Position numbers and translations under genes: made by a program. From NCBI RefSeq assembly GCF_006345805.1, contig NC_042998.1:42718001-42782000 (forward strand): a DNA stretch of 64,000 nucleotides, read 5' to 3'. The notes below the pieces were generated by a model. It had not been told where the DNA came from. It saw only the letters and a program-made list of their open reading frames with translations, and did no database searches. This document shows, in pieces, positions 1 to 55,467 of the stretch. Source of the DNA: Octopus sinensis. Taxonomy: Eukaryota. Every line of letters starts with the position of its first letter. Positions within the stretch are counted from its first letter, which is position 1.

Positions 1-43
1 TGCTAGTTATGATGACAATGATAGTATTTAGCAATTCATTTAA

Positions 44-455
44 TAGGTGTAAGAGTGGCTGTGTGGTAAGTAGCTTGCTTACCAACCACATGGTTCTGGG
101 TTCAGTGTGGCACCTTGGGCAAGTGTCTTCTACTATAGCCTCGGGCCGACCAAAGCCTTGTGAGTAGATTTGGTAGACGGAAACTGAAAGAAGCCCATCG
201 TATATATGTATATATATATATGTGTGTGTGTGTGAATGCATGTGTATGTTTGTGTGTCTATGTTTGTCCCCCCAACATCGCTTGACAACTGATGCTGGTG
301 TGTTTACATTCCCGTACCTTAGCAGTTCGGCAAAAGAGACCAATAGAATAAGTACTAGGCTTCCAAAGAATAAGTCCTGGGGTCGATTGGCTCGACTAAA
401 TACGGTGCTCCAGCATGGCCACAGTCAAATGACTGAAACAAATAAAAGAGTAATA
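44..455 (+). mobile_element. SINE family A (tRNA-like head, internal TA/TG microsatellite)
   Basis: GAGTGGCTGTGTGGTAAG...GGTTCAGT head and ...AATGACTGAAACAA(G)TAAAAGAG tail. Similar copies at ~12525-12955(-), 13640-14044(-), 18390-18778(-), 27385-27757(-), 29850-30260(-), 58740-59045(+), 63180-63432(+). Source of the recurring 'RRHLPKVP' ORFs. Confidence 0.9.
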
Positions 456-2379
456 AGTAGATTAGTAATAACTCTATCAAATTTTGGCACAAAGTTAGCA
501 CTTTTAGGGGAGGGGAAAGTTAAGTACATCATCCCCAATAGTCAACTGGTACTTATTTTATTAACCCCAAAAATGTGAAAGGCATAAGTCCACCTCAACT
601 GAATTTTACCTCTGAATGTAATGAGTCAGGAGAAATACTGCAAAGCATATTTTTTTCTGAAACTAACAATTCAGCTTGCTCATTGCCTGAGCTCAAATTA
701 GTAATAACAAAATGAGAAATCAATAATTCAAAACACCTTTAATATTGCATAAGCGTTGAAATCCAAAGTGATGGATCAAGATATTGAGTAATGTGAGCCA
801 TCTGTTGTTCTTGCAATATAAACATTTACTAATAAAATAAACCATCACCACAAACTTGAAAGTCTAAAATGACTCCCCAAGCATTGTGAGTGAAAACCAG
901 TTGACAGAGATAGTGTGGGACCCCGTTCAATTGACCCAACCTACATTCAAATAGTAGACGTAATCTGTCATCCAGTTAAACACCACGACCTTGCTCATGG
1001 CTGCCTTTAACTGAATTCATTGATATAGCTGTGCAGGACAACCTTTAAGCTTATTGCTTTCGCCTCTGACCCCATACAGGCTGATACAGCAGCCTCAAAA
1101 GTGCTGCTCCCATAAAAACGTCACTTGGGAAGGACCACCTCCTTGCCCTTTCCCTTGCTATGTTACAGGTTGAGCCAACTCTTGTTACAATCATTTGGGA
1201 CTGGTTTCTGTTTTGAATGTAACTCAATAGATTGTTGTGCTACTTTCTACTGCAAAAACTCATAAAACAATTTTTCTGCAACTCCTTTCGACCAATATCA
1301 GAGACTCTACTTAAAAAGACAAAAGGTCATGACTGCTGTCCATTCTTTGGCTAAGCCAGAGTCTAACATTATTTTAATTAAACTTATTGCAACATTAACT
1401 ATTTGAAAAATCAGAAAAGGTTTTGGTAATATTGTTGTAAATACAGAATAATTTGAAAGAGTTGAAGTAGCATATAGATACCAACTACATGAAACTGTCT
1501 TTGGTTCTATGAAACAAATTTGCTTTTAAAGCCCTCCTTCAAAATTTCATATTAATTTTCTGTTTAATTTGGTAAGAAACTGATATTTGACAGAAAATAA
1601 TAGTAATTAAAATATCACCGCAGCTTATAACTGAACTTCATAGAAAAGCTTCAACATGGTCGCTTGGACTACTAGATACAGGAGCTAAATCTCATTCACA
1701 GCACATCCTTATAGTCTTAAAGGAAGGACACTGGATAAAGTAGCCCTAGATATACTTAGTTTGGGGAAAAGTATGATAATCGAGTGTTCGATCACGATTG
1801 ATATTGGACTAAACAACAAATATTAGATGAAAGAATCTCGGTAAATATTGTAGAGATCAGAATTACATTCTTTTATACTGCATGGGTAGTCTCTCGACTC
1901 CGAGAATGACGATTCCTTAATTTATTACTGATCAACCAACACATGATTTGCTTATAATGATCAAATGCTTGTGCGTAAACGAACTCACCCACCTTCCTCT
2001 ATTCGACATTGAATGTACAAATGTACGGTGTACCACTGTTAAATTTAGTGATCGCAGAGTAACATTAAGTGAAGCGGTTTGCTAGACAACACGAAGTACC
2101 ATCCAGTACGAGAATCGAAACCACGATCTCGCGATCATGCGAGCAATACTCTCACTCTTTAATATTAATAAGTGGGCGTAACTTCGGTATATGTACCGGA
2201 TACATTTCAAGAAAGTGTTGTTTTCTTTTTTATATATATGGGAGGTTAGGGGTGGGAGAAAAGGGTTTCTGTTATCTTCAGAAATATAAACAAAGTCACG
2301 TGTGTACTTATACCGAAGCATCGCGAATAAGTGAAAATAAAAGAGGAAAAAAGTTTATGTGTTTATTAAACACAAAATT

Positions 2380-3280
2380 TACATGACTCGAACGAAGTAC
2401 GTACAGAACCAGAAGAAGAAACAGCTGAGAAGAATTCCAACTGGATCTGGTCAAACAGGAAGAGAAGTGAATTCCAAAGCATAATTTACTCTAAATCAAC
2501 TAATGTCTTCAAATGAACAGGTTACAACACCAAGGTATCGTGGATCGGAGCACCTTAAATGTAGACAACGATACAGAATGTCGAAACAGAGTGACCTGGA
2601 TGCGACCCCCTTAGCGTAAGGGCCGAAAAACTTGCTTGTGAAGATCTGAAAAAATACTTGACACCGGTTCCACATAGTTCTCTCCCCTTAGTTTATAAAT
2701 TCTCTTGGCATGTTTATGCTATTTGATCGCGTAACTTTGTTTATATAATATTAAATCTCAATGTGAATAATGTCAAAATCGTTTTGCTTTCTGATTAGTC
2801 TTTAAAGGTAGGAAATCATTTGTAATTTTCCCTTCTTTTAAATAACTGATATGCATTGAAATAATATTAGCTATTTTATATGAGGAAGTTTTAGGGTCTG
2901 TCTCTAAGTTCCACTTTGTAGGGATTTGTAATGGTTAATTAAACCTGACACGGTTTTTTAATGGTAGTTCTTTTATCGGTTCATTCGAGATAATAAGCTG
3001 TATCAATTTTCGCGAGAGTTGATCTTTACATCTTGTTTTTGACGCTTAAAGCTGTTTTAAGTTGAGTAAATTTATAAGGTGGTCAGATATATGGTGTTCT
3101 GAAGGACATAGCGACATGTGAGAACCGGTTTCTGCGGAATCCTGGTTTAAGCACCCTGTATAACCCCTCGTATCCTTTTTATTTTTTGGAATTTTTAGAA
3201 AAGTTTTGCGAATTTGTTTTCTACTCACGGGAATTCATACAATTATGCAAAAACGAAACAAAATCATGTTTAGGCGTGTG
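2380..3280. promoter_or_regulatory. Candidate IBA57 promoter / non-coding first exon region
   Basis: Non-repeat stretch visibly richer in CpG than its surroundings, with TTTCGCGAGA at 3008-3017. The IBA57 ATG directly follows a splice acceptor, implying an upstream exon. Confidence 0.45.
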
Positions 3281-4043
3281 ATTTAAGTGCTATTTGTCTG
3301 TTATTTTTAGCATATCTCACGACCACCTACCTTTCGTTTTTTTTTGTTGCTGACATGTTTTGATGTTTTCTATTATTTTTCTCCCAATAAACACATTTAA
3401 TGGTCCAACTAAAATTTCGAATTGTCCGTATTTTAAATTTGGATTTTAAGGACTTATAAAAAATCTTTTTTAAACTTTTTAGCTGGTATATTTTTTTAAA
3501 TGTTTTGTTTTCATAATCGTATGAATTCCTTGTGAGTGGATTTGATAGACAGAAACTGAAGGGAGCTTGTTGTATGTATATATCTGTGAGTGTCTTTATA
3601 TCTGTGTTTGTTCTCCCACCACCACTTGGCAACTGGTGTTGGTGCGTTTATGTCCCCGTAACTTAGCGGTTTGGCTAAAGAAATCTACAGAATAAATACC
3701 AGTCTTAAAAAAACGGGACTGTGGTCGATTCATTCGACTAAAATTCTTCAAAGTGGTACCTTAGCATGGCCACAGTATAATGACTGAAACAGGAAAAAAT
3801 AGAAATATAAGAAATATAAGATCTTACAAGTTTATATAATATATCCTTTATGTAAGTTACTACAATACTATTTATATGGAACAAAGTTACTGTTTCTAAT
3901 GGGTCAAGCAGCATCAATTGATAGTAGATTTGTATAGAGGAAAATATGCTTGAGAATTTATATAACGGTGGTAACACTCAAGATTAAGGTGAACAGCAAT
4001 AAACAGATGAAAAAATCCACCTATATCATTATTGAGTGTTTAA

Positions 4044-4265
4044 CCCTTTAGCATTCAGAATATTCTATCAAATGTAATGCTTATCTATTCACATTGTTTT
4101 TGAATTAAGCATGCATTATCTCATATCTTTGAGATTTCAACGATGTGATTTTTTTATTTTAAAAATAAAATTGTAGGGTATGTGTGAAAACCTCGATCTG
4201 CTCAGTTTGAATGTAAAACAGATGGAATATTTTGGCTGGATATGGCCAACTTAAATGCTAAAGGG
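4044..4265. mobile_element. piggyBac-type MITE
   Basis: TTAA-CCCTTTAGCATT...AATGCTAAAGGG-TTAA: terminal inverted repeats with TTAA target duplication. Confidence 0.85.
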
Positions 4266-5179: not shown

Positions 5180-5689
5180 ATGCTTCAGAAATTCACCTCA
5201 CTGTCTATGAAACCATTTTTGAAAAAAGTTCCCATATCTTCGGCCATTAATTGTTGTTCATATTCAGTATTTAAGTCTTTACAAAGAACCCCCAGAAAGC
5301 TTTTAGAAACAAATTTAGCCAATTTTTATTCGAGGCATTTGTCATATTTATCTGAAGAATATTTCTCAAGTTATTCAAATGCTTTCTTTAGAAGATGCTT
5401 TCCAAAAAGCTCCAGTGGTTTCAGGGCATCTCGTTTATTTTGTAATCAAATAGTTAATAGGTGTAAGATTGATGATAGAATAAAATCACATCCATTTACC
5501 TCAGATGTAGGGAATTCTTCAGTTAAAAAGCTGAATAATGTTAAACTGTTTCATCTGAAATCTCGGGGCCTAATTCAGCTTGCTGGCACAGATACTTCTA
5601 GTTTTCTACAAGGCCTTATTACAAATGATATGGAGCAGTTTCAGACAGACAATAAAAGAACAATGTATGCCATGATTTTGAATGTTCAG
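5180..5689 (+). CDS. IBA57: IBA57/CAF17 coding exon 1 (probable mitochondrial targeting region plus start of the GcvT-like domain)
   Basis: Long polypyrimidine tract ending ...tctttctAG|ATG at 5180. Translation ends ...SRGLIQLAGTDTSSFLQGLITNDM...YAMILNVQ, typical of the YgfZ/IBA57 N-terminal domain. Donor CAG|GTAAGA at 5689/5690, phase 0. Confidence 0.93.
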
Positions 5690-6481
5690 GTAAGACTTTA
5701 TTTCAAATGTAATTTTGTCAGTGTTTATGATAGGCACAGGTGTTGCCATGTTGTTAAGAAGTTTGGTTCCCAACCACGTAGTCTTGAGTTCAGTCCTATT
5801 GCATGGCATCTTAGGCAAGTGACCGGCACTTCTTTATACAGCTGTCTTCATTCATACGCATCACATGTCCAAACAAATATAGTTTTCTCTCTTGCATGCT
5901 GCATCTGATACTTCTTATGCCCTGTTGTATATAATCCATGGCCATCCAAAAGCCTTGTAAGTGGATTTGGAAAATTGAAAGTAAAAGAAGACCATTGTAT
6001 GTGTGTATGTATGTGTTTATACACACACACACATACATAACAATGTGAACAAGAATGGAGAAAAATCACATCTTTATTTGATAATTACACCATACATTGC
6101 TGATGATCATTTCTGTTGTGCCAGCATATTTAGATATAAAGAAAGGGTACATAATATCAATCAGACCAGTGTATCAGAAAATTTATACTTATCTTATCAA
6201 GGTAACCTAAAACAGGTTAAATTCAAAGTGAACTGAAATAATATCTATAATACATGAATGCATACAAAATGAATGTTAAGAAAAAATAGAATATTGAAGG
6301 AAAAACCAGTTTGATGATGTCAATAGATAACAAAAGAAAAAAAAATAAGCATAGAAATTCTACATCACGACATTTAGTTATCTATCTATCTATTTATGTA
6401 TGCTAAAAGAATCTACAAAAATTATGCTTATTAGATTACAGGAAAAGCAATTATTATTAAGGTATTCTATATTATTGAAAT

Positions 6482-16976: not shown

Positions 16977-17671
16977 TATATTTGGGGATGGTTATGTTTT
17001 GCCAGGTAAACACACACACACTATTTATTTGATCTTCACTTTAGTTATATTAGTATTATTTTTTGTTTAGTTTATTTGTCTGTGAAAGTCCTTCCGTCAC
17101 ACATTTTGTGACCTCTTCAGTGACACTTTATTCCATGTGTCTCCTCTTGCCCTGCCTTTTCCATTTTTCTCTTTTGTAGTAATAAAACTAATGTGAAATA
17201 GAAATAATACATTTCTAAATATCTCAGAGAGATTTATGCAGTAGTGGTACGATAAAGGCCCTTTATAGTTTTGTAATCAGTGAATTTATTTCACTAGAAT
17301 TCCTATATGTTTACAAGAGCTAGATAGGCATCTCCAATTAGCAGGCCATGCTACTCCAGACTGATGATGAGCAAAGACTCAGAAACTAGTCTCTGGGTGC
17401 AGGCTTAGCTGAGTGAAGGTGCTAATCGCCCCCTTGTAAACATAAGGACACAGGAAATGTGTCAAGGCCGACAGGAAGCATTGCTGCTTCCTAGGGCTAA
17501 ATAGCAGTAGCATGATTCCCTTCATGAGACTCACATTAAGTTGACAGTATACAACTACTTTACCGTACCACTACTGCATAAATCTCTCTGAGATATTTAG
17601 AAATGTATTATTTCTATTCAAATAAATAGTGTGTATGTTTAATTAACAAAAGATGACCATCTCCAAATATA
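16977..17671. mobile_element. Fold-back element with nested inverted repeats enclosing a hammerhead (Penelope/retrozyme-like)
   Basis: Inner IR 17197-17257 / 17558-17618 (61 bp, 1 mismatch). Outer diverged IR ~16977-17032 / 17618-17671. Confidence 0.7.
17356..17396 (+). ncRNA. Minimal type I hammerhead ribozyme motif
   Basis: CCAGA-CTGATGA-TGAG(caaaga)CTCA-GAAA-CTAG-TC-TCTGG: perfect stem I and stem II, both catalytic boxes, palindromic ACTAGT helix III, GUC cleavage triplet at 17389-17391. Confidence 0.8.
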
Positions 17672-17804
17672 GCAATAACCGTGGTAGTTATGATCAAATT
17701 TGTATGTGCCAGTAATAGAGGCAAAGGTAAGTAAACTTTCCATAATATTCATGATGCCATCTGAAATTATTATAATTATAGTCACTTTGCATATTTCCAT
17801 ATAG

Positions 17805-17930
17805 GTGTATCAGATCCAGAAGAGGAATATCACATAAGACGATATGAAATGGGTATTGCTGAAGGAACATCCGATCTCCCTCCAGGCAGCTGCTTTCCTT
17901 TAGAAAGTAATCTGGTATTTTTAAATGGTG
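17805..17930 (+). CDS. IBA57: IBA57 coding exon 4
   Basis: Acceptor ttccatatAG|; reads (C)[41 protein letters not shown] (YH..R...G..EG..DL, PLESN). Donor G|GTAAGT. 126 nt, phase 1-1. Confidence 0.93.
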
Positions 17931-18266
17931 GTAAGTTGTATCATTTCAGTCAAAGTTTTTATTCATATACTTATATATATGGGGTGCCATGTAAAAGCAC
18001 CTGTGCTGGAACCATGCAAAGGTGCGACTGCCAGTGCCACATAAAAGCACCCGTTGTCAGTGCCATTAAAAGTGCCTGTGTTGGTGTCATGTTAAAAGCA
18101 CCCAGTATGCTCTGTAAATTGGTTGATATTAGGAAGGACATCCAGCTGAAGAGACCATGCCATAACAGACAAATGTAGCCTCGGCAGCTCTCCAGCTGGC
18201 CAGTTCCTATCAAATCGTCTAACCCATGCCAGCATGGAAAATGGACGTTAAACAACAATAATGATG

Positions 18267-19234: not shown

Positions 19235-20106
19235 TACGAGGTCTGATCAATAAATATCTGGACTTTTACCATAGTAACGAAGCTAAAGCATGCAGAGTGA
19301 AGCCACTTGGCAAAGATTAACCTTGAACTCTGCTGTGCATGCGCACTAAGTTTTAACGTTCTAGCTCATTTCTGCTGTTTACTGCAGTGCTTGGAAGGAA
19401 GGTATGTAGCGTGTAATCATCGCATTGACCATGACAGAGAAAGTTGTCATGGCGATATCTACTCAGAGGCCTAACCAAAGTTGCAGAAAGTGTACAAAGA
19501 GGAATGTATGAGCTGCACACAAGTGTACGAGTGGTTCAGATATTTCCAAGATGTCCGAAAAAATGTTGATAGTGACGAATTTTCTGAGAGACCCACAACC
19601 AGCAGAACTGAGAAAAACATTGCAGCGGTGAGGGGAAATCATCGAATCACCATCTGTGAGTTATCAGAGGATGTACAGATTAGTTACGGTTCAGTTCAGT
19701 CTATTATCACTGAGAATGTGTCTGCCAAGTTTGTGTCAAAACTGCTTTCAGCTGACCAAAAAGACTCTCGGGTTTCAGTTGCACAAGATCCCCTTGATTG
19801 TGTTGAGAATGATGAAAACTTTTTGAAAACTTTGCCTAGGTCTCTGAGCAGGTATCGCCAAGCGTTTGGCAAAATTTAGTGCAGATTCTCTACTCAACTT
19901 TCTCTGTCATTGTCAATGTGGCAATCACATGCTACACACCTTCCTTCCAAGCACTGCTGTAAACAGCAGAAGTGAGCTAGAACGTTAAAACTTAGTGCGC
20001 ATGCGCAATAGTGTTCAAGGTCAATCTGTGCCAAGCAGCTTCACATCCCATGCTTTAGCTTTGTTACTAAAGCAGCAGTCCGGATACTTATTGATCAGAC
20101 TTTATA
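19235..20106. mobile_element. Mariner-derived element with two inverted 5' ends and a transposase HTH fragment
   Basis: TIR TACGAGGTCTGATCAATAA... ORF 19481-19879 resembles a mariner N-terminus (VYEWF..F, D..SERPTTSRTE.NI, RITICEL, AKFVSKLL...QK..RV). ~19826-20104 is an inverted copy of the 5' end. Confidence 0.88.
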
Positions 20107-30300: not shown

Positions 30301-30987
30301 CTCCAGCAAGTCAAGCAACTGCATTGGTTTATGTGGAGGACGGGGTAGTTGTACTTCTGTCGACATGAAATGCATATGAATGGTAGCTACTGGATGAAAA
30401 TAAATATGCTTTGTTCTGAGACAGTACATAAATGAAAAGTAATGAGGTGAAAGGTGCTACAACAGGGTTTCCTTAAAAACTGGCACTCTGTCGGTTACAC
30501 TGACAAGGGTTCAAGATCAATGGAACAGCTTCCTTGTGAAATTAACATGCAGGTGGTTGCACACTCCACAGACATGCATACCTTTAACGTAATTCTCAGA
30601 GAGATTTAGTGCGACACAGAATATGACAAGGCTGGCCCTTTGAATTACAGGTACAATTCATTTTTTGTCAGCAGAGTGGACTGGAGCAACATGAAATAAA
30701 GTGTCTTGCTCAAGGACAAAATACACTGCCAGGAATCGAACTCATGACATGACGATTGTGAGCTGGAAACCCTAACCACTTCACCATGTGCCTTCACTAA
30801 TGATATAAAACAAAACAAAAAAACTGATTATGTGTCATACTGCAGACCCACCCAGTATGTGCTACTATTGAACAAAGGATATCAAAATTATAATGAGTAC
30901 ATACCTAAAAACATATATATCTACTTACCTACCGACCTACCTACCTACATATGCATGCACACACACACACACGCACACACGCACACA

Positions 30988-31041
<54 letters not shown>

Positions 31042-33843
31042 ACACACACACACACGACTAAAAACTACAGCTATCACTTGCAAGTGAGTATGATTTGGTA
31101 GCAGGCATCATACTTTCCACTAGTTGCTTTAGTTGCCTATTTAGTTGTGAGCATACATAGACATCTCAGAAATCCAGCAGAACATTCATAAGAGAAAAAA
31201 GAAATGCACCAGTATTTGGCTGATAGTCATTTCATCAGAATTGACAGGAGCAACAGGAAATGTTATGCTTTACATAAGGACACCAAGCAATGCTCACTCT
31301 AAGAACTGAATTCTCAATGTTATGATCATAAGCCCAACACTGTAACCACTTAACTACATACCTTCACCCCCACCCCCCACACACACAATTTATTGTTGGT
31401 TAATCCAGGATTAGTGAAATATGCTAATATGAAAAGTACTCACATTTGGGTAAATAATAATGTACAGTTCAAAAGAAAACAAAAATCAATAGACCAAACA
31501 AGCTTACTTACTGTAAAGACATGACAACTTGCTTTTAGCACCAAATTATTCCTAATTATTTTCTGTACAGCAGGTTTACCCCTTTGTACATATATCTACC
31601 AGTAATCTAGAATGAAATTTGATGTGGCAAAAAAATTCATCCTAGAGAACATATAAAGCAGGCATGGGTAACCTTCTTTTGAGAGACAGGCTGCATAAGA
31701 CATGGCTCATCATCTGACAGTAACTGCAATTAAAAAAAAAATCAAGATTCTTCCCCAGCCATATGCTCATAAGGCCGTTTCCTGGATTTTGTGGTGTATA
31801 TATTCCCTACCCTCTGGATGGTGTGCTGGTCTGTCACAGAATTACTCATTTTTGTCAGCTGAGTGGACTGGAGCAATGTGAAATGAAGTGTCTTGCTCAA
31901 GAACAAATGCCTCACTTGATCAAGGAATTGAAACCTCAGTCTTATGATCATGAGTGCAACACTCCAGCCACTAAGCCACATGTCTCCACATCATCCACTT
32001 TTTAATGTTCAGTCAGATTCAGCAAGTTGAAGAGTGGTACCATAGAGATAAATGGTTGGAATATCAGGGTTAGTGTTAGGGTGGTGCACTGGCAGAATTG
32101 TTAGCACACCAGGCAAAATGTTTAGCAGCTTTTCACCTCTCTTTGTGCTCTGAATTCAAATGCCGAGGTAGACTTTGCCTTTCATCCTTTTGGGGGTCAA
32201 TAAAATAAGTACCAGCTGAGCACTAGGAATGGTGTAAATGACTTAGCCCCTCCCACAACACTGCTAGCCTAATATTGAAACTTATATTGGAATCAGTGTT
32301 TTGTTATCTTGCAGAGCTGAGTTCAACTCTTCCTGTTGTTTTAACTTGGAGAAGGATGGATTTTACTTGCTTTAACTGCTCAAAATATACATGAAGATGA
32401 AAACTTATTTAGAGCTTGCTGTCATCCATGGGGATCATCATCATCATCGTTTAACGTCCATTTTCCATGCTGGCATGGGTTGGACAGTTTAACTGAGGAT
32501 TGGTAAGCTGGGAGGCTGAACCATGCTCCAATCTGATCTGGCAAGGTTTCTACAACTGGATGCCCTTCCTAATGCCAACCACTCCAAGAGTGTACTGGCA
32601 TGAGAGCCAGTCAGGTGGCACTGACCTTGACCATTCTCAAATTGTGCATTTTATGTGTCACTGGCACGGGAGCCAGTCATGTGGAATTGGCGTTGACCAC
32701 GCTCAAATGGTGTTTTTTATATGCTGCTAGCCAGTCAGGCAGTACTGGCATCAGCCATGTTCGAACGGTGCTTTTTACATGCTACTGACATGGGTACCAG
32801 TCAGATATTACTGACATCAGCCATGCTTGAATGGTACTTATTACATGTCACCGGCACGAGTGCCAGTCACATGGCACTGGTATTGGTCATGACTACAATT
32901 TCATGGCACTGGTATTGGCCATGCTTGAATGAACCTTTTTACATGCCACCGGCACAGGTGCCAGTCAGGTGGTACTGGCATCGACCATGCTTGAATGGTG
33001 CTTTTTACATGCTACCGGCACGGGTGCCAGTCAAGTGGCACTAGCATTGGCCATGACTTCGATTTCATTTGGCTCAATAGATCTTCTCAAGTACAGCATA
33101 TTGTCCAATGATTGAAGGGTACTTTTAAATGGGCCAGTTATGCAACACTGGCATTGGCCATGGTTATGATCTCACTTGGACTGCTGGGTCTTCTCAAGCA
33201 CAGCATATCTCTAAAGGTCTCAGTCGCTTGTCATTGCCTCTGTGAGACCCAAAGTTTGAAGGTTGTGCTTCACCACCTCATCCCATGTTTTTCTGGGTCT
33301 ACTTCTTCCACAGGTTCCCTCCACTGTCAGGGTGTGACACTTCTTCATATAGATGTCTTCATCCATAGTTAAGAAGTTCACATCTCAACCACATGCCTCT
33401 ATATAGTACTATGTTTGGGCAAGTTGCCAAAGATCAACCAAAGCTTTCTGAGTGGATTTAATTAATGGAAATTGAAAGAAGCTCATTATATGCGAATGTG
33501 TATATACATGCGCATACTTTCAAATTCACATGCACACACACATACATATACTGCTGAGTGGACAAACAAAAGAAAGTGGCACTCAACACATTTGGCAGGA
33601 GTTACACATATTATTATTTGATAAGGGCTTGATGAGATAGTTTTCGTTTGACAAGCCTATGAAATTTAAAGTTGCATTGAGTCAAATGAAATTACTATTA
33701 AATAATAATAATAATAGTTTCAAATATTGGCAAATGGCTAGCAATTTTGGGGGAGGGTTAAGTCAATTACATTGACCCCCCCCCCCCCACTGCTGATCTG
33801 ATGCTTATTTTATCAACTCTGAAAGGATGAAATAATAATAATA

Positions 33844-33886
<43 letters not shown>

Positions 33887-34102
33887 GTAATAATAATTAA
33901 TCCTTTGTACTGCAGGCACAAGGCCGCAGATTTGTGGGGAGGGAACTACTTGATTACATCAACCCCAGTGTTTCACTGGTACTTAATTTATTGACCCCCA
34001 AAAGGAATGAAAGAGTAAGTCAAACTCTGCAGAATTTGAATGTTCCAATTCTTATTCTGTGTACCATAAAATCAAATTTCTGAATTTTTATCATTTCTTA
34101 TT

Positions 34103-34145
34103 TTGAACTTGACAAAGACTGACGTACTGTTGAAATACTGTTCAA
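34103..34145 (+). ncRNA. Minimal hammerhead motif, degenerate upstream copy
   Basis: TTGAAC-TTGACAA-A-GACTG(acgta)CTGTT-GAAA-TACT-GTTCAA: perfect stem I, one mismatch in stem II, cleavage-site TATC changed to TACT. Confidence 0.5.
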
Positions 34146-34490
34146 TAAAATATCTTACAATCTTCGTCTTGACTGTTTACCTTTGTGAAGAGTTACATCA
34201 ATCCTTTTTTAAAATATAAAAATCAAGTAGATTGAGATGATTGATTTTATGGTACACAGAATAAGAATTGGAACATATAGAAATTCTGGAAGTCACCAAA
34301 GCAGCCGGGTGTCTAAGGAAAATCGTAATGTAAATTACAGCTTTTGCGTTTTATTCCTTCTCACGGTTGGCTTGTCGGCCCTGTTAGTTTTGCTAGACCC
34401 CAGTGTTGAACCCAATCCTGGGCCCATGGATTTCATGCCATTCAAATATGAATCAGAAATTAAATTTCTGAATTTTTATCACTTCTTATT

Positions 34491-34533
34491 TTGAATTTGA
34501 CAAAAACAGACGTACTGTTGAAATATCGTTCAA
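34491..34533 (+). ncRNA. Minimal hammerhead motif, U3-A8 variant (downstream copy)
   Basis: TTGAAT-TTGACAA-A-AACAG(acgta)CTGTT-GAAA-TATC-GTTCAA: stem I with one G-U, U3/A8 covariant core, perfect 5-bp stem II, predicted cut after C34527. Confidence 0.65.
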
Positions 34534-34604
34534 TCAAATATCTTACAATCGAATCGCACTCTTCGTCTTAATAATAATAATAATAATAACAATAATAATA
34601 ATAA

Positions 34605-34670
<66 letters not shown>

Positions 34671-34672
<2 letters not shown>

Positions 34673-34888
34673 TCCTACGCAAAATACTTCTTTGTAATCT
34701 CAAGTTTTAAAACAAACATAATTTTCGTATGGTTTTTTAGGCATTCACTAGTACAACACTAAGTACAAAACCAAATATATGGCACCCTAGTCATAACACC
34801 AACATGAACTTCCAACTTGTTGTCTCTTGAGGTCTCTGGGTGAGACTTGGAGCCAGCTTGTGCAAATGTAAAACAAAAGTCAAACATA

Positions 34889-34890
<2 letters not shown>
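34671..34890 (+). mobile_element. 3' terminal fragment of an R4/Dong-like non-LTR element in (TAA)n
   Basis: Begins ATC CTA CGC AAA ATA CTT (ILRKIL, like the ORF end of RLE elements), then a UTR and an (AAT)n tail. Confidence 0.55.
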
Positions 34891-34940
<50 letters not shown>

Positions 34941-35555: not shown

Positions 35556-35849
35556 AGTAGTAGTAGTAATAATAATGACATTGATAATAATCATAATAAT
35601 AATAATAATCCTTTCTACTATAGGCACAAGGCCTCAAATTTGGGGGAGCGGAATAGTCGATTACATTGACCCCAGTACTCAACTGGTACTTAATTTATCA
35701 ACGCCAAAAGGATGAAAGGCAAAGTTGAACTCGGTGGAATTTGAGCTCCGAATGTAACGGCAGACAAAATATTGCTAAGCATTTCACCTGGTATGCTAAC
35801 AATTCTGCCAGCTCGCTGCCTTAATAATAATAATAATGATAATAATAAT

Positions 35850-35880
<31 letters not shown>

Positions 35881-35961
35881 GTTTAGCGTCCGCCTAAATG
35901 ATAATGATGATGATGATGATGATTATTATCATTATTATTATTATTAAGGCAGCGAATAATG

Positions 35962-54519: not shown

Positions 54520-55467
54520 ATGGATAACCTAACCATGGAAGAAGTGAACTCCGACAGCTCGTGTGATTTTGCACGTTGCTGGACTGTTGCCCTTCAGGTC
54601 ACCTTATTGGGACTAATCTCAGCTGTGGGCACATTCAGCAACTCTTTAGTCATCCTGGCTATATTTTTGTTTGATGAACTTCGAACCAAAGCAAAGTCTT
54701 TTGTATGTAATTTAGCTGTCGCTGATCTGATTTTGTGCCTCTTCGTAATTCCTCTACGTACAATGATGATGTTTGCCAGACAACCTTTTGGCTTATGTCA
54801 TGTAACGGTGGTAGCACAAGCCACCTTCGTCTATACTTCAATAAATACACTAGCTGCCATTTCATATAATCGTTTTGTATTGACGATGAAGACCAGGTCT
54901 CAGTACGAGAACACTTTTACTAAACGTAACGTGTTCCTCATTTTATCAACAGTTTGGTGTTTGGCTTTTGGTGCTTCCTTCATGGCTGTCATGTGGACTG
55001 GAGCACTTAATGTCACCTATGACAACAAGACACGTGCATGTGTGTTTTTGAGAGGAAATGCAACAATTTCAGCCCTTCTGATGGTGCCACTATCATTACT
55101 CTTTTCACCGTTGTTATTAACTCTTTATTTCTATGCCCGTATTTTTTACTATGCTCGTCACTCCGCTGTGTCAGTAACTGGCCATCGCCCAGATGACATT
55201 AGTTTCACTTACAAATTGTGTTGCATCACCATTCTTTTCGGAATTTTAAACTTCCCAGCTTGCATTTTGGCTGTAGTACAGGTATTTAGTAGTCCGGATG
55301 CAAATGAAGTTTTGATTCGTTTTTCCATCATCATCCAGCTACTTAATTCTGCTGTCAACCCAGTTATATATGGATGGAAAGTGCCAAAATTTCGAAATGC
55401 GTTTATTCGGATGTTACGTTTGAATACTTGTTTCAAAAGGGCCACAGTGCAGCCTATTAACCACTGA
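54520..55467 (+). CDS. Rhodopsin-like (class A) GPCR, single coding exon, 315 aa; resembles the melatonin receptor/Tre1/Moody/GPR84 group; orphan
   Basis: Seven hydrophobic segments: TM1 GTFSNSLV, TM2 NLAVADL, TM3 C...ISYNRF, TM4 W, ECL2 Cys (TRACVF), TM5 FYARIF, TM6 FGILNFP, TM7 NSAVNPVIYGW, helix 8 FRNAF. N-glycosylation sequons present. AATAAA at 55548 and 55679. Confidence 0.93.
   Translation: MDNLTMEEVNSDSSCDFARCWTVALQVTLLGLISAVGTFSNSLVILAIFLFDELRTKAKSFVCNLAVADLILCLFVIPLRTMMMFARQPFGLCHVTVVAQATFVYTSINTLAAISYNRFVLTMKTRSQYENTFTKRNVFLILSTVWCLAFGASFMAVMWTGALNVTYDNKTRACVFLRGNATISALLMVPLSLLFSPLLLTLYFYARIFYYARHSAVSVTGHRPDDISFTYKLCCITILFGILNFPACILAVVQVFSSPDANEVLIRFSIIIQLLNSAVNPVIYGWKVPKFRNAFIRMLRLNTCFKRATVQPINH

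Follow-up and report, generated by a model that had tools for sequence, protein, structure and literature searches.

A probable decayed copy of a Penelope-like element with paired minimal hammerhead motifs and a 2A-like polyprotein start in octopus DNA

Organization of the locus

The window, the whole 64-kb stretch of octopus DNA analysed here, contains two direct repeats of 94 nt (34069-34162 and 34457-34550) that are 91% identical, differ by 8 mismatches within their first 92 nt and are spaced 388 nt apart. With one 11-nt indel allowed, they reach 34170 and 34569. The preliminary description of this DNA had reported the repeat pair and, between the two predicted hammerhead cuts, a complete open reading frame (ORF, 34237-34494) whose TGA lies inside stem I of the second motif; both observations hold. 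The ORF has 85 codons, a length reached in five of 5000 base shuffles, and no ATG occurs between the predicted cut and 34237. The locus is low in GC (34%) and holds 1.3 units of the 388-nt repeat unit. The sequence from 34040 to 34569 is likely a one-off insertion of about 530 bp, with the following features and flanks.

33905..34040, + strand: abundant host interspersed repeat, the left flank, cut off at 34040 by the insertion
34040..34075, - strand: exact 36-nt inverted copy of 34241-34276 (ORF codons 2-14), an inverted 5' segment typical of Penelope-like elements (PLEs)
34069..34170, + strand: upstream pseudo-LTR (pLTR) copy; 34069-34075 is common to it and the inverted piece
34103..34145, + strand: minimal type I hammerhead 1, U3-A8, stem I 34103-08/34140-45; damaged
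34171..34236, + strand: rest of the element 5'UTR; same order in the relatives L001 and L003
34237..34461, + strand: codons 1-75 of the parent PLE polyprotein, with RIG start motif, hydrophobic segment, 2A-like motif and start of the next domain
34339..34395, + strand: hydrophobic segment, aa 35-53; mean Kyte-Doolittle 2.64, position conserved in relatives
34396..34425, + strand: 2A/StopGo-like motif DPSVEPNPGP, aa 54-63; Ser where listed cores have D/G/C/N
34453..34471, + strand: junction where the ORF start meets the second repeat; perfect 9-bp inverted repeat with one central base
34457..34569, + strand: downstream pLTR copy; its tail is the 42 nt beyond the predicted cut
34462..34494, + strand: read-through tail of 10 codons plus TGA; repeat sequence, not found in relatives
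34491..34533, + strand: minimal type I hammerhead 2, U3-A8, stem I 34491-96/34528-33; every pair intact
34570..34671, + strand: (TAA)n microsatellite, the right flank and probable target

Most of the 12 other window copies of the left-flank host repeat run on as ..GAATTTGA(A/G)CTC(A/C)GAA.., whereas the copy at 33905..34040 stops. No target-site duplication was seen at the insertion. Inverted pieces, partial tandems and tails are described as standard for PLE insertions (PMC8557442), and the direct pLTRs, inverted piece, tail of about 40 nt and microsatellite flank are the same as in the EN+ PLE insertions of Craig et al. 2021 (PMC8557442), with the inverted 5' segment, the tail and the AT-rich or microsatellite target all present here. 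The 36-nt inverted copy had gone unmentioned in the first reading, as had the U-U mismatch in the first hammerhead and the 2A-like motif.

Hammerhead motifs of the window and its relatives

The hammerhead motif occurs twice in the 64-kb window and in none of 100 shuffles. Both copies combine the core UUGACAA, one extra A, a 5-bp stem II, a 5-nt loop and a GAAA-UA-NH segment, with cuts predicted after 34139 (copy 1) and after 34527 (copy 2); the earlier parse as minimal type I hammerheads with U3-A8 and an extra A before stem II is borne out for both. A U3-A8 box and GAAA core with stems I and II, which mark the minimal hammerheads of PLEs, are thus found. Copy 2 has a UC cut site and a palindromic helix III (AUAU). 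Copy 1, already suspected of being partly dead, has indeed a C at 34138 in place of U16.1, so that its cut site is not NUH, together with a U-U mismatch at 34120 in stem II and a non-palindromic helix III segment, AUAC. The base of stem II is G-U in copy 1 and A-U in copy 2 rather than G10.1-C11.1, which is kept as G-C in the hammerheads of two relatives, L001 and L003; the unpaired base between positions 9 and 10.1 is present in the window motifs and in both relatives.

The defects of copy 1 look like later decay, since related contigs from public sequencing runs mostly carry the intact bases: among the rows listed, A prevails at 34120 in 4/4 runs and T at 34138 in 3/4 runs. C at 34496 and G at 34505 likewise prevail in 4/4 runs, among the 40 of 167 rows listed. 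Excision and circularization of a 388-nt monomer, as proposed earlier, find no support at this locus. The upstream cut of the double hammerhead needs U16.1 of copy 1, which is now C, and there are only 1.3 units; under established hammerhead rules, release is predicted to fail and no 388-nt monomer would be released from this copy.

The window motifs share with the minimal hammerheads of PLEs, including the U3-A8 variant of Schistosoma Cercyon, the same core and unpaired base (Cervera and De la Pena 2014, PMC4209133), the palindromic 15.2-16.2 positions without a real helix III, and the presence of one motif per flanking repeat. They differ from the hammerheads described there by a 5-bp stem II that starts with G-U or A-U, by the absence of U16.1 in copy 1, and by their new host family. 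Minimal PLE hammerheads cleave weakly in vitro even as dimers (PMC4209133).

L001 and L003 are metagenomic relatives with the same hammerhead, short 5'UTR and start motif. L001 is full-length, with one U3-A8 hammerhead ahead of the start codon and another following the stop. In L003, positions 1-4060 form a partial tandem of a relative, lying like the window copy in (TAA)n, with a U3-A8 hammerhead at 2216-2246 between the two tandem units. The motif precedes the equivalent start motif by 71 nt in L001 and 81 nt in L003. A hammerhead-bearing pLTR before the start and after the stop is therefore seen in the window layout, at both ends of L001 and between the units of L003. Scanning both strands of 85 loci (1.42 Mb) for the motif turned up 4 matches, all beside PLE coding ends, and exact motif scans gave none in the viral and none in the prokaryote contigs. 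A covariance model built from the 4 motifs matched in the window only its own training motifs, and in the 85 loci added one new cut-off motif, in L004, and one chance-level match. The L004 motif (1-42, - strand) is an inverted hammerhead at the locus edge. Another locus, L056, has a C3-G8 hammerhead at 2657-2700, about 660 nt after its RT match.

Covariation in the stems, suggested earlier as a check, was found: 7/11 pairs are changed on both sides among 4 motifs from 3 families, a count reached by 1/500 shuffles and compared with 0-2 in slid controls, in a small sample in which the structure was defined from those same 4 sequences. Across the three families the core bases are invariant, helix III is still palindromic, and the stems change on both sides. 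No hammerhead model appeared among the 24 weak Rfam matches at E<=10, and in isolation the motifs show no folding advantage over shuffles (z -0.70 and -0.40), with stems I and II nevertheless contained in the predicted fold. Because of these two results, the case for real hammerheads rests on motif, position and covariation. The same two results, along with the loss of G10.1-C11.1 in both window copies, favour the view that the hammerhead-like motif has ceased to be a working ribozyme in the family, or never acted as one, and has been retained in the pLTR for protein binding or as a promoter element. An anole element, moreover, was inserted in vitro without need for hammerhead cleavage (PMC11167929). 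Against such a role stand the invariant core, the palindromic helix III across three families and the two-sided changes in the stems, and we consider it improbable.

A second, unrelated minimal hammerhead lies elsewhere in the window, at 17356-17396 on the + strand, with an ordinary CUGAUGA core, a palindromic helix III and a UC site. It sits in nested inverted repeats (17197-17257/17558-17618, 98%), and together with them looks like the stump of another PLE family.

The open reading frame and its parent polyprotein

Four proteins match the ORF at 81-88% identity, three of them named Octopus vulgaris or O. sinensis. The fourth, P0003, is a 370-aa fragment with 83% identity to the ORF across 36 aa; it extends into a protease domain. 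Among its 10 longer relatives are full-length proteins of 1,244-1,461 aa, and Pfam on 8 relatives recorded RVT_1 in 6 and GIY-YIG at the C-terminus in 6. A full-length partner of the type that had been sought, with RT and GIY-YIG in one ORF, thus exists among the relatives and is lacking in the window copy; what ties the window to RT and GIY-YIG is the fragment P0003 and, beyond it, relatives about 40% identical. The N-termini of the relatives align with the window ORF, with tblastn matches limited to 34237-34482, and share the layout of an MxDLxxYRxRIG start motif, a hydrophobic segment and DPx[VI]ExNPGP. The hydrophobic segment, aa 35-53, is predicted to be a signal or membrane anchor. All five close relatives go on with YESEIE(K/N), whereas the window turns to KFLNFYHFLF-stop after codon 75 (34461).

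The ORF is therefore a junction chimera of a PLE N-terminus and end-repeat DNA, which had escaped notice in the first reading. The protein search found no homologue of similar length, the exact ORF is absent from the protein collection searched, and Pfam gave no domain in the ORF or in P0003. The initial proposal of a mini-Penelope element or coding retrozyme survives in its first half, as a non-autonomous PLE derivative. A coding retrozyme with a peptide of its own is unsupported; codons 1-75 belong to the parent polyprotein.

The other three matching proteins, P0002, P0004 and P0005, are C-type lectin gene models of Octopus vulgaris and O. sinensis in which a piece of the element, 33-37 aa long and with the 2A-like motif inside it, is present. 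These models hold either an exonised PLE fragment or an annotation artefact. An origin of the ORF from a C-type lectin was rejected, as the lectin matches share just that piece.

In public sequencing data 24 runs are listed; 20 cover some of the stretch, no run contains half of the sampled words, and none is recorded as RNA. Contigs from 4 of the 24 runs, which may stem from other individuals or species than the window, were compared over 33700-34900. Among the 32 contig pieces listed, 19 lie on the element and none crosses the junction past 34461; 13 of the listed pieces end at 34432-34461, and 11 of these 13 continue for at least 110 letters unlike the window. This is support rather than proof, because the listed pieces stand beside 56,065 others, contigs tend to end at high-copy repeats, and the species sequenced in the runs may differ. 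None of the 15 joints listed, beside 121 others, falls in the element region, and that list is crowded by the flanking host repeats, the left one of which has very high contig depth. In each of the two DNA runs the repeats have about 10x the depth of the ORF, which is not to be read as copy number. The closest long piece listed has 11 differences in 250 nt, and related contigs differ by about 4% or more; that the frame is still open despite this divergence is unremarkable for 75 codons and no evidence of decay.

With a probability of about 83%, we read 34040-34569 as a decayed, broken PLE copy with ribozymes of known type. The parent type likewise has RT and then GIY-YIG, as EN+ PLEs do (PMC8557442). 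Compared with canonical PLEs described there, the window copy keeps 75 codons only, and in the parent clade a 2A-like, hydrophobic leader and then a protease resembling Ulp1 come before the RT. The locus itself is ordinary transposon debris and no demonstration of a coding retrozyme.

The 388-nt unit might instead be an amplified, non-autonomous retrozyme-like mini-element that is cut, circularised and copied by the parent RT, and whose product may be a membrane peptide of 62 aa set free at NPG/P. Metazoan non-LTR retrozymes have the same spaced hammerheads in direct repeats, low GC and a relation to PLEs (PMC7229834; bioRxiv 10.64898/2026.07.22.740005); their sizes of about 170-400 nt (PMC7229834) fit the unit, and a derivation of retrozymes from PLE pLTRs has been argued (bioRxiv 10.64898/2026.07.22.740005). 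The ORF is open and lacks an upstream ATG, related contigs mostly carry intact hammerhead bases, and the shared repeat start at the junction could also result from a rolling template that stalled at the 9-bp hairpin. The window, on the other hand, has only 1.3 units rather than the two or more complete units in a row expected of a retrozyme (bioRxiv 10.64898/2026.07.22.740005), and one of its two hammerheads lacks U16.1. Its hammerheads are minimal, a form that belongs to PLEs and cleaves poorly (PMC4209133), whereas retrozymes carry canonical ones (PMC7229834), and the start of the parent ORF lies inside the unit. The junction is crossed by 0/19 listed contig pieces on the element, which show no sign of unit amplification, and the protein searches returned neither a similar-length protein nor the exact ORF. 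A coding retrozyme at this locus is accordingly very unlikely.

Origin of the insertion

The start points of the two repeats lie within 2-7 nt of one base, and five nucleotides at 34457-34461 (codon 74-75) fit both sides of the junction. We think it somewhat better than an even bet that a template jump made this insertion. The parent RT would have begun within the 5'UTR, where the sequence corresponds to 34569, and copied back across the hammerhead as far as a fixed stop some 35 nt upstream of it, probably the RNA 5' end. It would then have jumped to codon 74-75, at the 5-nt match beside the 9-bp inverted repeat, and not to the RNA 3' end, and copied the ORF start, the 5'UTR and the hammerhead to the same stop. 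A 36-nt piece derived from the opposite strand would have been attached to the product, and the repeats would afterwards have drifted about 9% apart, the divergence they now display. A PLE RT has been reported to start inside its own RNA and to extend both target strands in vitro (PMC11167929). The template jump would account for both repeats starting within 2-7 nt of the same base because the RT stops at the same fixed point twice.

The main rival to the template jump is a deletion at the DNA level, in which a full-length pLTR-ORF-pLTR copy was inserted and later lost about 3.5 kb between 5-nt matches. It gives the locus the same identity as a broken PLE with another history, and takes about one third of the weight of that reading. 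The 5-nt match and the 9-bp inverted repeat at the junction would also suit a deletion, and a loss of DNA at this locus is evident from the flanking host repeat, whose right half is missing. On the other hand, only chance would bring the end of the deletion and the upstream repeat's 5' end to within 2-7 nt of the same base, and a deletion is on the whole unlikely. That the repeats share their start suggests that pLTR formation involves a fixed 5' end of the RNA and a template jump, and such starts can be counted in any octopus assembly.

The 2A-like leader of the parent clade

A leader end was found within the first 175 residues in 30 of the 155 proteins examined (the 10 longer relatives and 145 new ones); in the other 125, mostly short, none was seen. 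The ending is PGP in 25 of the 30 leaders and KN[RC]QR in the remaining 5. Among the 25 PGP leaders, 21 have [VI]ExNPGP, 16 have DPx[VI]ExNPGP and 11 have DPS[VI]ExNPGP, and the 16 DPx[VI]ExNPGP carriers share just 27-53% identity. The window has the [VI]ExNPGP core of 2A/StopGo at aa 57-63. Position 12 (p12) of the core is Ser in the window and in 13/25 PGP-ending relatives, outside the listed residues D, G, C and N, rarely T or V (PMC12846837), while sister leaders carry C, N or G. RT motifs occur in 10/25 PGP leader proteins by pattern and in one more by Pfam.

A tree of 26 leader- and protease-bearing rows, calculated from the stretch after the motif with a midpoint root and including two long rows, places P0003 in a 17-row group (100/98), mostly of the DPx form, beside the RT-bearing P0033 and P0006. 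The KN[RC]QR rows form one group (100/98). This ending stands in place of NPGP in P0012, P0013, P0014, P0077 and P0093, in L001 130-3897 and in L003 from 2327; it is perhaps a different way to remove the leader, and the subclade offers a natural comparison for leader function. The Cys pattern of a Neptune-type RT-EN linker was flagged in 4/30 leader-bearing proteins, a set with many fragments whose tree contains no reference elements.

The arrangement resembles that of the 2A-like sequences in APE LINEs (Odon et al. 2013, PMC3708506), where the same kind of hydrophobic N-terminal leader ends in [VI]ExNPGP before the enzymes, and sea-urchin NLRs have 2A-like signal sequences to which the leader is similar (Roulston et al. 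2016, PMC4981915). In contrast to the leaders described in these two papers, the element is here of GIY-YIG type, D-P-S replaces G-D before [VI]E, and skipping is predicted. Ribosome skipping would remove the parent leader, with its RIG motif, hydrophobic segment and DPS[VI]ExNPGP; the freed protein would begin with Pro and hold a SUMO-protease-like domain, RT and endonuclease. Judged from the sequences, there is an even chance that this PLE clade sheds its leader by a working DPS[VI]ExNPGP skipping peptide followed by SUMO protease, RT and GIY-YIG. If true, StopGo would act in a third class of retroelement, with a new p12 variant that has its own upstream motif. With the leader one can test directly, and cheaply, if StopGo is used by PLEs and if Ser can stand in for Asp at p12, whose side chain is in contact with rRNA in the solved complex (PMC12846837).

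The odds are a little under even that DPx[VI]ExNPGP does not skip and instead is cut by signal peptidase or by the protease of the element itself, or is a relic. Ser at p12 falls outside the variants listed in PMC12846837; no D12 substitution exceeded the activity threshold in P2A or F2A (bioRxiv 10.64898/2026.09.24.754024); several LINE 2A-like motifs are inactive (PMC3708506); and in one subclade KN[RC]QR takes this position. Against such a non-skipping role stands the pattern of constraint, in which [VI], E, N, P, G and P are fixed and x is free, as in StopGo, in 21/25 PGP leaders, and the motif is conserved in the 16 DPx carriers despite their low overall identity. The C, N and G of sister leaders at p12 are listed functional variants, and T12 and other rare variants work in native context (PMC12846837).

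Class A 2As have been reported in telomerase-like elements that might be PLEs (bioRxiv 10.64898/2026.09.24.754024); the search of that preprint would miss DPS[VI]ExNPGP because it was limited to one substitution. The DPS variant does not appear in the passages and supplements of 2A catalogues that were searched, and four DPx words have 0 occurrences in 4 supplements of PMC12338488. The literature on 2A-like sequences that was searched does not mention Penelope, and no link of 2A to PLEs was found in a search that covered sources other than subscription journals and Repbase Reports. The architecture of leader and protease may be known to specialists.

The SUMO-protease-like domain

A protease of Ulp1/SENP type was recognized by Pfam in 1/8 proteins (P0014 passes PF02902), by profile search and by fold. 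The model of P0032, which is 77% identical to P0003, has a pLDDT of 90, with SENP5, SENP1 and Ulp1 as its top fold matches; the fold and the His, Asp, Gln and Cys residues of the Ulp1/SENP family (C48, clan CE) are present. As judged from the predicted structure, the parent clade carries a Ulp1/SENP-fold protease-like domain before the RT. Ulp1 has been found in Cryptons (PMC3212892), and the protease noted in a PLE is a Josephin-like one in Chlamys (PMC8557442). No PLE with Ulp1 was found in the literature outside subscription journals and Repbase Reports. A SUMO-protease in PLEs would parallel other Ulp1-bearing transposons and might suggest a counter to SUMO-based silencing.

Pattern searches with P0003 against metagenome contigs gave 107 matches, of which 0 were confirmed, and alignment A2 gave 0/22 confirmed matches against viral contigs and 5 protease-only loci against prokaryote genomes. 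Most of a set of 80 loci likewise have a protease match only, and were set aside as not being PLEs.

Within the window, a weak tblastn match to the protease-bearing P0050 (E 7e-4) lies at 30370-30558 on the - strand, in a frame with 3 stops, and is possibly a decayed protease fragment.

Other features of the window

An uninterrupted 315-codon frame at 54520-55467 on the + strand encodes a rhodopsin-family GPCR (Pfam 7tm_1, E 1.3e-33). Two probable exons on the + strand, at 5180-5908 and 17765-18178, are folate-binding aminomethyltransferase-like, with a weak GCV_T match for the first (E 0.021), and belong to a gene that may be IBA57-like. The + strand at 19475-19879 holds the remnant of a mariner-type transposase with a weak HTH_48 match (E 0.05), and microsatellite-rich DNA at 35813-35955 forms a long fold-back with unique arms.
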